Source: Stylophora pistillata
Taxonomy: Eukaryota
Length of the DNA stretch: 64,000 nt
Reading direction: 5' to 3'
Assembly: GCF_002571385.2 (NCBI RefSeq)
Contig: NW_019218016.1
Coordinates: forward strand, 178,011-242,010
Positions 15,001 through 33,000 of this stretch are shown piece by piece; within the stretch, counting starts at the first letter, position 1; every line of letters begins with the position of its first letter. The position numbers were made by a program.

Positions 15001-18000
15001 TACAAGGATCAAAACCTCGTTTTTTCACACATTTCTTACAATATTACATGGGAGGATTTGGTTTTGGAGCAAATCATGTCATCTGTTTGATAGTTTTTGT
15101 ACTTTTCATCACCTATCTACCACAGGTAACCCAGGCTCACTGCTTGTGTCACAAAACTTCGTGTACATATTAAAGACAACAAATCGCACAGGTACGTTTC
15201 ATTGATTTTTATTTCCATTATCAAACAAATTTCCAGACCTAAACTTGGCCCCATATGCTCTCTCTATTTAACCATGTGCATGTGACACAAACAGTGAGCC
15301 TGGATTACCTGTGTATCTACTTGAAAATGTAACGACATTGTAAGGAGAAATTCATTTTTGGTCACTCTGGGACCGCAAGGGCTAACTAATAATGGCTTTC
15401 TTCCCTTACCCGACCTCTTTCAGAGCTAAATCTCTAATTTATCCTAAACTAAAGCCGAGCTATTATAAAAGTATGATTTACAATCAAATCCCCAACTATC
15501 AAATTACCCTGAAGCCTCGAATAAGAACTCCCCTTGAATAGGCGCCCCTTCAAATATGGGCCCCCCCTTCTGGTCCTCTAATCACATGCACGGTTGTCTA
15601 ATGTACTTTTAAGAGGCTGGGTCACCTAACACATTAAAATTTCAACTGACCATTAGCCATGGAATATGCTCAAGGACCATCAAAACAGCTCAGACCAAAA
15701 AAACTCTCATAATTAATTTACCTAATCTGTGCTATTTTATTACTTAATGCTATTATTAATGTCAAAAAATGGTTAGATATTCTAGTCTTCTCGGATAGGG
15801 ACAAATAAATGGAGGTCCTTTCTCCTGCAGGGTTGGGGTAGGAGACGTTAATTTCCCACACACGAGATTACTGTGTGGTGGATGTCCTCCCCTGGGGTGG
15901 GATGGGTGGGAGGGTGGACTAGCACAAATGGTTCCTATGTTCCTTTCTAGTCCTTCCCCACTGCAAATAATGCAGTGAAAATGGACTAAATTCAATTAAA
16001 ATTAAATTAAATTATTACTTTCCAGATTAGTTAGGAGAATTTTGTAATATCCAGATGGTGCTCCTAAACAAACAAGAATTGTCTATTTCCCCATCTTGTT
16101 GACAAGACAATGTATTAATCACATAAGGTGAGGTGGCAATAAAAATTTGAAACATAATTTATTGTAAGCAAACAGAGGTAAGAATAGGAGAATTTGGAAG
16201 CTGAAAAGCAAGTTCACTTGGAAAAACAAAACACAATATTTCTTCTGATTAATATCATTCATATTGTATAAAAGTTAACGGAAAGTCTGCTCTTAAGCAC
16301 AGTAGTACACCCAAATCTGTGCAGCATCCCCTTGAATGCAACACTGGTTCATCAACCCTTCCAGTATTTCATCACCTTTCCCTGACAGTTCACCAGAACT
16401 AATTTACATCTCTAAGTAAAAAGAGGTACTGTAAAGTATCAAGCACAAGAACATGCCACAGATCTTGCCAGGGATTAAACCTGAATTTCTGGCTCAAAGT
16501 CCAGCTAAACCATTTGTCCAACATATCCCCCACTATCAGAAATGACCTTTCTTCCTTACTTGACTAGTATTTTGATAAAGTAGACTGTTTGCTATCTTAA
16601 TTCTAAGTTTAGTGCTCACAATTAAAAACAAACAAAGGAACAACAAAACAAAATTAAGACTAAAAAGCTGAATGCAATAACTGAGCCTTTTCCTCTTGTC
16701 TACATTGCCACCCACCTTCATGATTATTTTGATTATCTAAATTATGACTAAATGTAATAAATTGGAAATTTTCTTTCTACGTACATGATTTTACAATGCT
16801 AATATTCAGGGTTGTCCCCCCAAGCACCTGCTGCCAGCACAATTGGCTAGCAATCACTAGGCAGAGCACAACAGGTACTTCTGACATTGCGCACCTACAG
16901 TTGTTTGATACTTAACACTATCTTTGAACTGCATCACTTGAAATTTCAGCCACCGGCATAATTTCGTAGCTACAACCCTGAGCATGTCACTGTCCTAAGC
17001 ACGTCCCTGTGTTCCTTCCTCTGTAAGATGTATGTTATCATTGGTTCTGGTTTTCCCTTCATAGTAACAGGTCCTCGCTTTTTGAACACAAAGTGATCAT
17101 GTGGCTGGCACAGCAGTGACCTGAAGTCAAACAAAGTCACAAATTGCAATCAATGAATAACCTCTTCACTCCCAAGGTATAAAGACCAATTTTCACTGCT
17201 GTCTGCCATCAACATGTAACTTACCATCCAAATTTCAGTTCATTATGAATTCAATAATCATGGCTGTTGACAAAGGAAGGGGTCAGGAAAGGCCAAATCC
17301 CTGTGGATGGAATCCCTGGGAGGGGTATCCCTGAGGAGTGAATTCAATAATTGCAGCTGGTGACTGAGAAGGGGGAGAGAAAGGCCAAATCCCTGTGAAA
17401 GGAATCCCTTGGAGGGGGATCCCTGAGGGGTGGATTCAATAATTACAGCTAGTGACTGAGGAGGGGGAGAGAAAGGCCAAATCCCTGTGGATGGAATCCC
17501 TGGGAGTGGATTCAGTAATTAGGGACCGAGGAGGGAGGAGGGAAAGGCCAAAATCCCCAAGGGTGGTATCCCTTGGGGTGGTATCCCATGGGGTGGTTTC
17601 TCTGAAGGTGACTAAGGAAGGAGAAGTGAAAGGCCAAATTCCCTGGGGGTTGTATCCCTGAGGAAGATGGCCAAAACTTGGGGGAGGATGTAAGGCCTCT
17701 GGAGACAACAAATGAGTTGGTTGGCCCATAAGGGTCATGGAAAAACAAAATCATCTCGACCCATTTCACCTAATCAGTGACACACCTGTAGGCATATTCT
17801 GTCACATTTATCTTTCCTCGCAGTCCAGTAGTTTCTGTACGACTTGTCAGGTTGACAGTGTTTCCAAATAGGCAGTAACGGGGTTTCTTCTGTCCAACAA
17901 CGCCAGCAACAACCTCTCCAGAATGAATGCCAACTGTGATCTAACACAGGAAAAGCACATCTCTCAGAGTTCACACTATAGTTTTTGTTTTAAAAAAATA

Positions 18001-30000: not shown

Positions 30001-33000
30001 GAAGATAGATGATAAATAAAACCCGTTCATTCAGGAAGTCTCAAAAGCGTTTCAAAGAAGTGAGACTGTCAGAGAATTCAAATATCAGGGGAGGTGATAT
30101 TTACATAAAAAGTTTGAACACAAAATAGAAATGATGAGAGATTGAAAATTGTGTCGATGAAAATGAATTCCGCGGTAAACCTTTCAATATGAATTATTGA
30201 TACTAAAGCGAAAAGAAATAAAAATTAAGATTTTTATCGATAAAATTCAGATAATGAAGGAACAAAAGTGACAGATTTGTGCTGTTGAAGCGTCCATAGA
30301 AATGCGCGAACAATGAAAACAGTCGGTTGTTTGAAGAAGTTATAGAATTTGAAAGAAATATTATCTTCGTGTCCTCGTGACAGTTATATGCGAGGCGTGA
30401 GATTCATCGAGATCAGAGTTGTCATCGCTAATAAAATATAAGCCCGCTAAAGGAGATGAACCGAGTTCGAAGGGTTATTTTAAACAGCAAAGCCACCAAC
30501 GGTGAAAAAAGACGCAGGCTTAGTGTTCCAGCGTTTTGGTAAACACTTGTCAATCACAAACAACCTTCTCTCCCACAAACACAAAAGCAGATTTAAAAGG
30601 AAAAAAATAAGGTTATTATTCTTACCTTGTAAACATCGTTCATCCCACTCAACATGTCAAAGTAGGTGTAAAGCTTGTTCAGCATCCGAACGATGTCCAT
30701 GGGAACAATTTTGTCGTCGGAACATAGCGCTGTAAACCCGACGATGTCGCTGAAAAGTATAGTAACCAGCTTGTAGTTTTCCGCGGGCACCGGTTGATTT
30801 AACCGCAGTTTAGCCGCGACTTCTTGGGGCAGAATAGAATGCAGCAATTCGTCTGTGCGTTTTTTGTTTTCCGTGAGCTTTACCTCCAGTTTCTTCAGGT
30901 CGTTGCTAGTTTCCTCTAACTTTTCCACCAATTCTCGCTCGGCTCTTCTTGCCTGTGACATGAAAATGAGGTCACGCGTTGCATCGTGAACTGGTATATC
31001 ATTGAAAAAAATACCCAGGTTCTTAAAATTGTCTAAGTCGTTTGCCCGAGGGGAGCACAAAAATAGAATGCTGTCGTTCGTTGGAACATAAATCATCTGA
31101 CCCTTGAGGCGTAGTAATGGATTTGTAAGGATCATTCTCTGATCTTCTCGACCGTCTGACTCGTTGGACATTGTATCCGCCGCAAATCGCAGCGCGGACT
31201 GTTTTACTGTCACAATAAAAACTGTATTTATGTGCGCAAGAACAGAATCAAACGAAAATTCCATACGCGGTCTTGACAGTTCGAAAATTTCCGTGAACGA
31301 GAAGGCACTGCCGGTTGTAAACCGTTTGCTCAGAAGGCGCATCATGGCAACCCCAGTTTGCGTGATGTTAAGTTTATGATCGAACATCACGTGAAATGGG
31401 AAAGCTTTGCAGAATGACAACAAACTGAGCCCTCCTCGCCGCTTCTTGTCCATGTTTTCGCCATCCGAGGACAGCTCCGCACTGTGATTATCTACCATGG
31501 TTTCTAAATCAAACGCCTGTAGCCCAAGTTTTGATTGCGTTGCATTTTTGCAGCCTGTCTCTCTGATTGCAAATATGACATGTCCGCGATCGTCGGATCG
31601 CGCTTGCTGCACACACACTTCCACCTCGGTGTCAAGCATTTTATTCGCTACTGCTTTAACGACTCCGATAACGATGTGTTCCAAACCTTGTCTCCGTGAG
31701 TAATAGTGTAGGAGCAGTGTTCCATCAGGAGTCTCGGTACAGCGAAAAGACGGTGCTTCCATACCTGGGTAAATCGTAGCGAGATGATCATGGAGCGCGT
31801 CCAAGTTACATAAAAAATCTCTCAGATTCCTCCCCAGCACTTTCAGAATCCGATCATAGCCGGTCTGCAGACAGTAATCCAGAAAATGTGAGCCAAAAGC
31901 TTCCAAAACAGCGTTCAGGGGTAAAGCTGAAACAAGTCAACGAAGCAAATTTTAACTTTTTTTATTTTAAAATATCTCGCGCGATAGAATTACATTTGCG
32001 ATAACCTTAGTTAAGACTGGAAAGAATGTTCTTAAATAGGATTTACGATATATATCAGCCCATAAGACCTCTGTCTATAGAAAAACATTTTTGTAATAAA
32101 TAAAATACAAGCTGAACAGTTCACTATATTGCATACCCAGAGTCTCGCAAGCCGCAGCGACCAAACTCAGAGTTTCTTCATCATCATAAATTTTGTGAAT
32201 TAGGTATGATCCGCCGTCTAATTCCACCCCAGCCTTCTCGCTGAAAGAAGAAACAGAAAGAACATAATTGCACTGCAGAGCGGCCTCTTTCACTTGCAAC
32301 CCATTTAGGCGTTTCAAAAACTATTAATGTCTTCTTACACGATAGATCGCCATACGTCTTCGCCAAACTTAGAAACCACCAAGTCCGCCAGAGCGCAATG
32401 AATGAATCCATACTGTGAGCGAAACAAAGATGCGTTTAGTAACACGCAACACAGATAACTTAAGCGATCTTTGAAAGCGGGAGCAAGGAAATCTTACCAT
32501 ATTTTTGTTGCGCTTCACAAGTTCAGCCCCTCTGTGTCAAACTTTCGGCGCTCTCTTAATGATTTCCTTGATTGTTTTAGGTGTTAGTCACGTGTCATTG
32601 TATCTCCCACGGCATCTAGGCTGTAATTACTGATAGCTCAGGCCATCCAATCACCTTGAAGTGCCTTTGTCAATAAGGCACCTTAGCCTCGTATCTGCAA
32701 AGCAACCGGCTTGTCAGAATTCACTGCGACTAATTGCGCGTCTAAAGCCTAAAACATCTGATATTGCATTTACGTTCGCAAAAGTATCAACAAGGCTTAG
32801 TAAAAACTTCATACAATAGATAAGTTTTAATTCGCATGACACATAACAAAGTTTAGGACGGAAATTCTGATTTATTCATCCAATTTTCCACGCATTCTCC
32901 GCATTCAGTGTCCGAAGTAAACAAACAATTCGCTCTGCAATACGTAAGGTGTCGAAGTCTTATCGCGTAGAATATGTTTCCTGTGTGCTTTCATTTCAGC

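Follow-up and report, generated by a model that had tools for sequence, protein, structure and literature searches.

Two soluble guanylate cyclase genes in tandem in the coral Stylophora pistillata: a subunit from a sister lineage of alpha beside a divergent member of the beta1 clade

A stretch of 64,000 nucleotides of the Stylophora pistillata genome (assembly GCF_002571385.2, contig NW_019218016.1, positions 178,011 to 242,010 of the forward strand; the whole of it is called the window here) carries two soluble guanylate cyclase (sGC) genes, which lie head-to-tail on the minus strand and are named gene A (32500-25368) and gene B (22355-16970). Gene A belongs to an old sister lineage of the alpha subunits, termed A-type, in which alpha-type catalytic residues are combined with beta-type haem ligands, and gene B falls in the beta1 clade as a divergent, fast-evolving cnidarian sequence. 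The reading preferred here, to which we give a probability of about 0.65, is that both genes encode intact subunits of a haem-regulated sGC of the nitric oxide (NO) type, one from the sister lineage of alpha and one from the beta1 clade. The gene family is an ordinary one, and gene A is its unexpected member.

The two genes are soluble guanylate cyclases by their domain set (H-NOX, HNOBA/PAS, coiled coil and class III cyclase), and exon by exon Pfam gave HNOB, HNOBA and Guanylate_cyc in both, in the canonical order. The start codon of gene A is at 32500-32498 and its stop at 25368, the start codon of gene B is at 22355-22353 and its stop at 16970, and from the stop of A to the ATG of B there is a spacer of 3,012 nucleotides. 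By arithmetic on the exon coordinates, gene A has 782 codons and gene B 625. It had been predicted earlier that both genes lie on the minus strand about 3 kb apart with the alpha-side gene upstream, and these coordinates bear it out.

The catalytic residues of the human enzyme are listed in Table 1 of PMC6005667, where the alpha subunit supplies Asp486, Asp530 and Arg574 and the beta subunit supplies Glu473, Cys541, Asn548, Arg552 and Lys593. At these eight positions gene A has D, E, D, R, C, T and K and no KGK lysine, and gene B has G, E, D, T, C, N, R and K. Gene A has the C1-like catalytic half, with equivalents of Asp486, Asp530 and Arg574 and without those of Asn548, Arg552 and Lys593; gene B has the complete set of beta1 residues (His105, YxSxR, Gly at metal site 1, Glu473, Cys541, Asn548, Arg552 and Lys593). 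The possession of all eight residues by one chain, which marks the homodimeric (beta2-like or atypical) cyclases, is seen in neither gene, A being without three of them and B without two. The original prediction had given FSD without the N and R residues to A, and FSG with E, C, N, R and K to B, and the exons agree with it throughout; the equivalent of alpha Arg574, kept in A and missing from B, is a point beyond it. Since each chain is without what the other has, neither homodimer should be active, and by analogy with the human enzyme and with the C1 and C2 halves of adenylyl cyclase, A alone and B alone should be inactive and should gain activity only with a partner of the opposite type. The same had been predicted from the roles of the human residues, and the residues read here agree.

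The haem pocket of gene A has the proximal His in LDALHDHL, YYSRR and Ile at position 145, and that of gene B has His105 in LDALHEHL, YYSER and Met at position 145. NO-type subunits are marked by the lack of Tyr at beta1 residue 145, which corresponds to Tyr140 of Tt H-NOX, a residue whose role is treated in the available part of PMC1435932. From these positions we infer that A and B carry NO-type haem pockets, haem binding by A and NO selectivity being predicted from the residues. Because A has a complete beta-type pocket (His105, YxSxR and a non-polar residue at 145), a heterodimer that contains it could carry two haems. A and B would act as obligate heterodimer subunits with one active site at their interface, half of it from each chain. 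To this site A would give the two metal-binding Asp residues and the Arg574-type Arg, without the Asn, Arg and Lys that hold the ribose and the phosphates, and B would give the Glu and Cys for guanine together with Asn, Arg and Lys, without the first Asp and the Arg574-type Arg.

For the trees, proteins were searched first in a band of 759-2165 amino acids, which found fused models and missed subunits of ordinary length, and then near the size of the query. The alignment (MAFFT L-INS-i) had 66 rows, made up of the window exons A4, B3 and B4, each in a row of its own, the units of fused models, and named and unnamed matches. The careful IQ-TREE run used 541 columns, from the C-terminal part of H-NOX to the cyclase domain, and supports are given as ultrafast bootstrap / Shimodaira-Hasegawa-like approximate likelihood ratio test (SH-aLRT). 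The alpha clade was recovered at 100/100, with cnidarian alpha as sister to bilaterian alpha. The A-type clade (100/98, 18 rows) consists of a placozoan pair, six cnidarian rows, amphioxus, an annelid and a nemertean, a centipede, mites and ticks; it joins alpha at 98/95. Window exon A4 groups with Montipora inside the A-type clade (100/99), and the branching within that clade follows the species tree from placozoan through cnidarian to bilaterian. The beta1 clade (100/100) holds Trichoplax, Nematostella beta1 with Dendronephthya, a nemertean pair, bilaterian beta1 and a B-type subclade (100/100), in which both gene B window exons are placed. A tree of the cyclase domain only again united alpha with A-type (SH-aLRT 94).

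Residues were counted by clade from the alignment rows (A-type 18, alpha 16, other beta1 11, remaining 13), and gaps reduce some of the denominators. His105 is present in 17/17 A-type rows (one gap), each of the Y, S and R of YxSxR in 18/18, and the Asp of metal site 1 in 18/18, and Asn at the Asn548 position is found in 0/17. The alpha clade likewise has the metal-site-1 Asp in every row (16/16) and Asn at the Asn548 position in none (0/16), and it keeps His105 in 4 of 15 rows and the Y, S and R of YxSxR in 8, 8 and 7 of 15. In all 11 of the other beta1 rows metal site 1 is G or A, and His105, the whole of YxSxR and the residues N, R and K are present. The 13 rows left over (beta2-like, a clade taken as oxygen (O2)-type and four unplaced) have all eight catalytic residues in every case, and position 145 is Tyr in 4/4 rows of the clade taken as O2-type.

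The affinity of gene A is divided along its length. Against the Protein Data Bank (PDB), exon 4 scored 348 bits with human beta1 (from H-NOX onward) versus 191 bits with alpha1 (from residue 170), and exon 6 scored 62.8 bits with residues 573-621 of human alpha1 versus 51.4 bits with beta1. Exon 4 has 93% identity to the nearest database protein and 75% to Montipora foliosa P0132, and orthologues of gene A such as the latter are publicly annotated as 'beta-1-like'. An N-terminal extension is a trait of the alpha family, and the second alpha trait considered was a degenerate H-NOX without the proximal His; gene A has neither, and its protein starts M-YGF without any extension. It also stands outside the alpha clade, which is complete at 100/100 without it.

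Canonical alpha subunits occur in cnidarians besides gene A, namely Oculina P0246 ('alpha-2-like') and one unit of Actinostola sp. P0001, both of which group with the bilaterian alphas at 100/100. P0001 (1750 amino acids, 'hypothetical protein, partial') is a fused gene model in which each domain occurs three times; unit 1 is the orthologue of A, unit 2 the canonical alpha and unit 3 the orthologue of B (59-82% identity to gene B per exon by tblastn). Unit 2 is without the His, and its best named matches are the Oculina 'alpha-2-like' protein (55%) and vertebrate alpha2 (42-47%); cnidarians therefore do have a canonical alpha, which in that anemone is placed between A and B. The sister clade to which gene A belongs has bilaterian members of its own, and so the split between A and alpha is older than the cnidarian-bilaterian ancestor. 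The A-type signature was found in none of the vertebrate or insect matches, which suggests loss of the A lineage in those groups.

Gene B scores higher with beta1, exon 3 giving 254.9 bits with human beta1 versus 73.5 bits with alpha1 and exon 6 giving 85.2 versus 49.1 bits. Exon 3 has 77% identity to its nearest database protein, and only three cluster representatives exceed 45% identity to it, so the B-type appears to be narrowly distributed. A canonical cnidarian beta1 also exists (Nematostella P0193) and is distinct from the B-type, which forms a separate long-branched subclade within the beta1 clade (stem branch 0.52). The node that places it has a support of 87/82, and a single clade of B-type and cnidarian beta1 is not rejected by the approximately unbiased test (p-AU 0.245). 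B may therefore be a duplicate of cnidarian beta1 or an older branch. A nemertean paralogue in the beta1 clade (P0038, P0085 and P0088; Tubulanus and Lineus) also has a long branch. It carries FSGLCDF and YCVFGDTVNIASRME, a motif that is beta2-like except for Gly at metal site 1.

The exon models were built from minus-strand stop-to-stop frames over 16970-32500, each exon being searched individually, and their features are as follows.

Gene A exon 1, 32498..32500, minus strand: ATG, the last 3 bases of the 5' exon, with the donor GTAAGA next to it; read from the DNA.
Gene A exon 2, 32339..32412, minus strand: codons 2-25 plus 2 bases; start of H-NOX, YGFIHCALADLVVSKFGEDVWRSI; Pfam HNOB positions 1-24; 92% identity to Actinostola unit 1 (tblastn).
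Gene A exon 3, 32137..32240, minus strand: enters in phase 2 and leaves in phase 1; Pfam HNOB positions 24-66.
Gene A exon 4, 30626..31926, minus strand: 433 full codons; carries the remaining H-NOX (His105, YYSRR), HNOBA/PAS, the coiled coil and the initial third of the cyclase domain, which includes FSD; Pfam HNOB 2.5e-34, HNOBA 2.5e-60 and Guanylate_cyc 1.9e-13.
Gene A exon 5, 27503..27649, minus strand: 49 codons; Glu473 equivalent and the second metal Asp.
Gene A exon 6, 26563..26717, minus strand: 155 nucleotides; Arg574 equivalent kept, beta Asn548 and Arg552 replaced by Thr and Lys.
Gene A exon 7, 25368..25932, minus strand: 187 codons and stop; has an alpha-like segment, FLKGSSEFEF, and a long tail with ..KIETTL at its end, the tail being kept in Montipora P0132; no Pfam domain in this exon.
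Spacer between A and B, 22368..25367, no strand: 3.0 kb, which must hold the promoter of gene B.
Gene B exon 1, 22279..22355, minus strand: from the ATG, 25 codons plus 2 bases; MYGFVNQALQDLVLRESSFGTWEEI; tblastn match to Actinostola unit 3.
Gene B exon 2, 22001..22107, minus strand: 72% identity to Actinostola unit 3 (tblastn).
Gene B exon 3, 19865..20722, minus strand: 285 full codons; carries H-NOX, with YYSER and with His105 in the context LDALHEHL, and the initial part of HNOBA; Pfam HNOB 1.1e-32 and HNOBA 1.4e-32.
Gene B exon 4, 18890..19278, minus strand: 129 full codons; covers the last part of HNOBA, the coiled coil and the opening part of the cyclase domain, where FSG lies; 82% identical to Actinostola unit 3.
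Gene B exon 5, 18079..18219, minus strand: 47 codons; VETVGDKYMAVSGLP.
Gene B exon 6, 17786..17940, minus strand: 155 nucleotides; equivalents of Cys541, Asn548 and Arg552.
Gene B exon 7, 16970..17120, minus strand: 49 codons and stop; ..RGPVTMKGKPEPM.., with the Lys593 equivalent.

Every intron of A and B has GT..AG borders, and the exons are open with consistent phases. Five introns are common to both genes in position and phase, as had been predicted, and all five were read from the DNA. The first is in codon 26 in phase 2 (ATCGT|GTAAGA in A, ATATT|GTATGT in B), the second is in phase 1 at codon 61 of A and 62 of B, the third and fourth are in phase 0 just 5' of VETIGD (A) or VETVGD (B) and of IRIGIHSG (A) or ITVGIHSG (B), and the fifth is in phase 2 within an Arg codon (CG|C in A, AG|G in B). 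The exon between the fourth and fifth is 155 nucleotides long in both genes. Each gene has one private intron, right after the ATG in A and in phase 1 within HNOBA in B.

The private intron of gene A (32413-32497) lies directly 3' of the start codon, and it may be old in the A-type lineage because partial models of gene A orthologues from Nematostella and Capitella start with Q-YGF, which would be expected if translation had run on through the same CAG acceptor. In gene A the last intron contains an (AGTC)n microsatellite of about 46 copies (26159-26342), in gene B it contains 2.8 copies of a 92-bp unit (17246-17506), and these repeats account for the long repetitive pseudo-open reading frames found there. 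The end of gene A (25368-25460, minus strand), ..KIETTL, and that of its Montipora orthologue, ..KIDSTL, are like class-I PDZ ligands and resemble the ..RETSL of vertebrate alpha2 sequences among the matches; seven other A-type proteins with printed ends are without it. The alpha2 subunit binds PSD-95 through its C-terminal end.

Comparison with known systems places the pair more closely. The vertebrate alpha1/beta1 enzyme (GUCY1A1/GUCY1B1; 6JT0, 4NI2) has the same four-part architecture and the same split of the eight catalytic residues over two chains, and exon 6 of gene B aligns almost residue for residue with human beta1. It differs in that the H-NOX of gene A matches beta1 and keeps the haem ligands that most alphas have lost, there is no N-terminal extension in gene A, and the beta-side gene, B, is a divergent paralogue. 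The cnidarian alphas (Oculina P0246 and Actinostola unit 2), which belong to the sister clade of the A-type, are like A in their alpha-type catalytic residues and unlike it in that His105 is replaced by V in both; none was found in this window by tblastn. Homodimer-type sGCs (beta2-like, Chlamydomonas CYG12 and Choanoeca Cf-sGC1) have haem ligands in every chain, as A and B do, but they carry all eight catalytic residues per chain (13/13 rows), whereas A and B have only half each. Gyc-88E/Gyc-89D and GCY-35/GCY-36 are heterodimers in which both subunits have an H-NOX with haem ligands. The clade taken for these insect and nematode atypical pairs has Tyr145 in 4/4 rows and complete catalytic sets, whereas A has I and B has M at this position, and it branches outside alpha, A-type and beta1. 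For the choanoflagellate Cf-sGC1, the available text of 10.1101/2022.02.14.480389 describes NO binding and NO-stimulated cyclase activity of a single purified recombinant protein. Membrane adenylyl cyclase (Table 1 of PMC6005667) is divided like A and B, with the metal Asps and Arg in C1 and the base, ribose and phosphate residues in C2; unlike them it is a single chain, has no haem sensor and is specific for ATP.

Several observations weigh against the reading of A and B as partners from these two lineages. Exon 5 of gene A does not discriminate (39.5 versus 38.9 bits with alpha1 and beta1 in the PDB), the Arg552 position in the A-type is Lys in 12/16 rows with Arg in 3/16 and Ile in 1/16, and A and B are represented in the trees solely by rows of individual exons. 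A tree of the regulatory region only recovers the alpha, A-type and beta1 clades but as a polytomy, so it is chiefly the cyclase domain that supports alpha and A-type as sisters. A canonical alpha and a canonical beta1 are expected in the same genomes, and pairing of A with beta1 or of alpha with B could occur as well, being equally allowed by the residues. The A-type is found without a detected B-type in ticks, centipede, annelid and amphioxus, and it is therefore independent of the B-type.

It is accordingly conceivable, and in our view unlikely, that the adjacency is only historical and that A works with canonical beta1 and B with canonical alpha, or that B is a modulatory, dominant-negative beta. 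The occurrence of the A-type without the B-type, which extends to mites, speaks for this, as do the apparently narrow distribution and the long stem branch of the B-type. But B keeps all the beta-side catalytic residues and the haem ligands, and orthologues of A and B stand in one same-strand array in the coral and in Actinostola despite a divergence of the proteins of about 60-80%. It is this shared array in two hexacorals that suggests the pairing of A with B, which would be one of the partnerships allowed.

The gene order was compared with that in other animals. The fused model of Leptotrombidium deliense (P0004, 1028 amino acids, on a contig of 38,954 bp) has an A-type unit followed by alpha; this model and that of Actinostola are annotation errors that record gene order. 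In five of five fused vertebrate models (Channa, Collichthys, Camelus, Lepisosteus and Bagarius) the FSD (alpha) unit precedes the FSG (beta) unit. The A-B tandem matches this vertebrate alpha1-beta1 order, the genes being adjacent and on the same strand with the alpha-side gene upstream; human GUCY1A1 and GUCY1B1 are adjacent, and a tandem of alpha1 and beta1 has reportedly been described in medaka. No third cyclase was found in the window when tblastn was run with P0001, Nematostella beta1 and the gar model, which matched only the A and B loci, and no cyclase remnant was found in the spacer with four alpha proteins at E up to 10 (best E 0.49).

A hand tally was also made of sGC classes that lie, within one assembly, on contigs of identical size in bp, which shows a shared contig and not adjacency, distance or order. 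Different classes were on a contig of the same size in 10 of 11 within-assembly comparisons:

Lymnaea: alpha and beta1, contig of 2,600,519 bp (gastropod scaffold).
Aplysia: alpha and beta1, contig of 2,334,956 bp (gastropod scaffold).
Cloeon: alpha and beta1, contig of 36,396,660 bp.
Branchiostoma lanceolatum: A and alpha, contig of 24,147,288 bp.
B. floridae x belcheri: A and alpha, contig of 21,068,153 bp.
B. floridae x japonicum: beta1 and alpha, contig of 26,009,725 bp.
Tubulanus: A, alpha and the beta1-clade paralogue, contig of 24,873,478 bp.
Oculina: A and alpha, contig of 33,958,336 bp.
Ornithodoros: A and beta1, contig of 84,440,111 bp.
Paralvinella: A and a beta1-like paralogue, contig of 2,232,542 bp.

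The exception is Ixodes scapularis, whose two records may be of different assemblies. Three echinoderm comparisons of beta2-like with alpha differ in contig, beta2-like being another clade. The fused models and the shared contigs together suggest, in a loose sense, that A, alpha and beta1-clade genes have long been linked, and the Actinostola model, the mite model and the shared contigs point to the coral adjacency being the same linkage as the vertebrate one.

That the two adjacencies arose independently, by separate rearrangements or duplications and without an ancestral cluster, is doubtful. Different paralogues are involved (A versus alpha, B versus canonical beta1), and the unrejected clade of B-type with cnidarian beta1 would allow B to be a young cnidarian duplicate; but an independent origin has to meet the order A-alpha-B in the anemone model and A-alpha in the mite model, as well as the shared contigs of the tally, which include the gastropod alpha and beta1 scaffolds of 2.3 and 2.6 Mb.

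The original prediction was that A is the orthologue of GUCY1A1 and B that of GUCY1B1, the pair having stayed adjacent since the cnidarian-bilaterian ancestor, and this is now improbable. Part of it stands. The order and strand are those of the fused vertebrate models, the catalytic residues are complementary, and A and B, whose closest kinship to each other had been named as the result that would speak against the prediction, are separated by the trees, an old split placing A with alpha and B with beta1. But the identity of gene A with alpha was considered and is contradicted by its separate clade (100/98), by the canonical alphas of cnidarians, by its His105 and YxSxR and by its lack of an N-terminal extension; in Actinostola, moreover, the canonical alpha sits between A and B. 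Gene B does fall within the beta1 clade, as a subclade beside canonical cnidarian beta1 from which it differs, and it may not be a one-to-one orthologue of bilaterian beta1. Decay of A or B into a pseudogene is hardly credible, the exons being open with proper borders and phases, the functional residues all being kept, and the proteins being conserved at the identities given above for A exon 4 and B exon 3.

With A and B read as intact subunits, the history of the family may be pictured as follows. A symmetric, haem-bearing ancestor would have given rise to alpha-side and beta-side lineages by complementary catalytic losses; on the alpha side, canonical alpha would later have lost the haem ligands and the A-type would have kept them. 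Tentatively, and at somewhat less than an even chance, A may represent a third, old and unnamed lineage of NO-type subunits, a living intermediate that has lost the beta-side catalytic residues as alpha did but retains a working haem sensor, so that its heterodimers would sense gas with two haems, and a same-strand array of A, alpha and beta may have existed before the cnidarian-bilaterian ancestor. The A-B pair would then be a remnant of that older array, which would be whole in the sea anemone and reduced to A-B here, to A-alpha in the mite and to alpha-beta in vertebrates.

The window as a whole is AT-rich (G+C about 33-45%), the nearest named relatives of its proteins are from scleractinian corals and sea anemones, and its three runs of N (10753; 38536-38556; 44158) are all outside the region of A and B. 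Upstream of gene A, exons with Sec7 (4.3e-11) and F-box (2e-07) matches at 42428-42892 and 47275-47658 on the minus strand suggest an FBXO8-like gene on the same strand as A and B; human FBXO8 is presumably on the same chromosome arm as GUCY1A1 and GUCY1B1. Between this gene and gene A, a fragment at 35647-36102 on the plus strand, matching a Helitron helicase-like N-terminal domain (2.2e-10) and Rep ORF2/G2P, is probably a transposon remnant. Long open frames at 48487-49203 and 56730-57038 on the plus strand have Pfam matches of coiled-coil type that are weak and fall short of the curated cut-offs (KASH_CCD at 27.2 bits versus a cut-off of 43.3), and they may belong to a coiled-coil gene.

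In the literature covered, in which most subscription journals are not included, no alpha-like subunit with haem ligands and no cnidarian sGC synteny were found. The available parts of PMC7400543 and PMC10073611 count seven sGCs for placozoans and for cnidarians, which cluster with the human alpha and beta subunits and are not subdivided more finely there. The available part of PMC1435932 (2006) distinguishes alpha1, alpha2, insect alpha, beta1, beta2, nematode and insect atypical clades, and that part covers neither cnidarians nor chelicerates and does not use the word 'tandem'.

The finding touches two open questions about these enzymes, why only beta binds haem and how a heterodimer with one site arose from symmetric homodimers. 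A subunit with alpha-like catalysis and beta-like sensing would separate the steps, catalytic symmetry being lost first and the second haem later, and the A-type would offer a natural two-haem heterodimer in which cooperativity in NO sensing could be tested. The annotation of A-type proteins as 'beta-1-like' hides their predicted inability to replace beta1 catalytically. For corals, A and B add candidate receptors to the pathway of NO and cyclic guanosine monophosphate.

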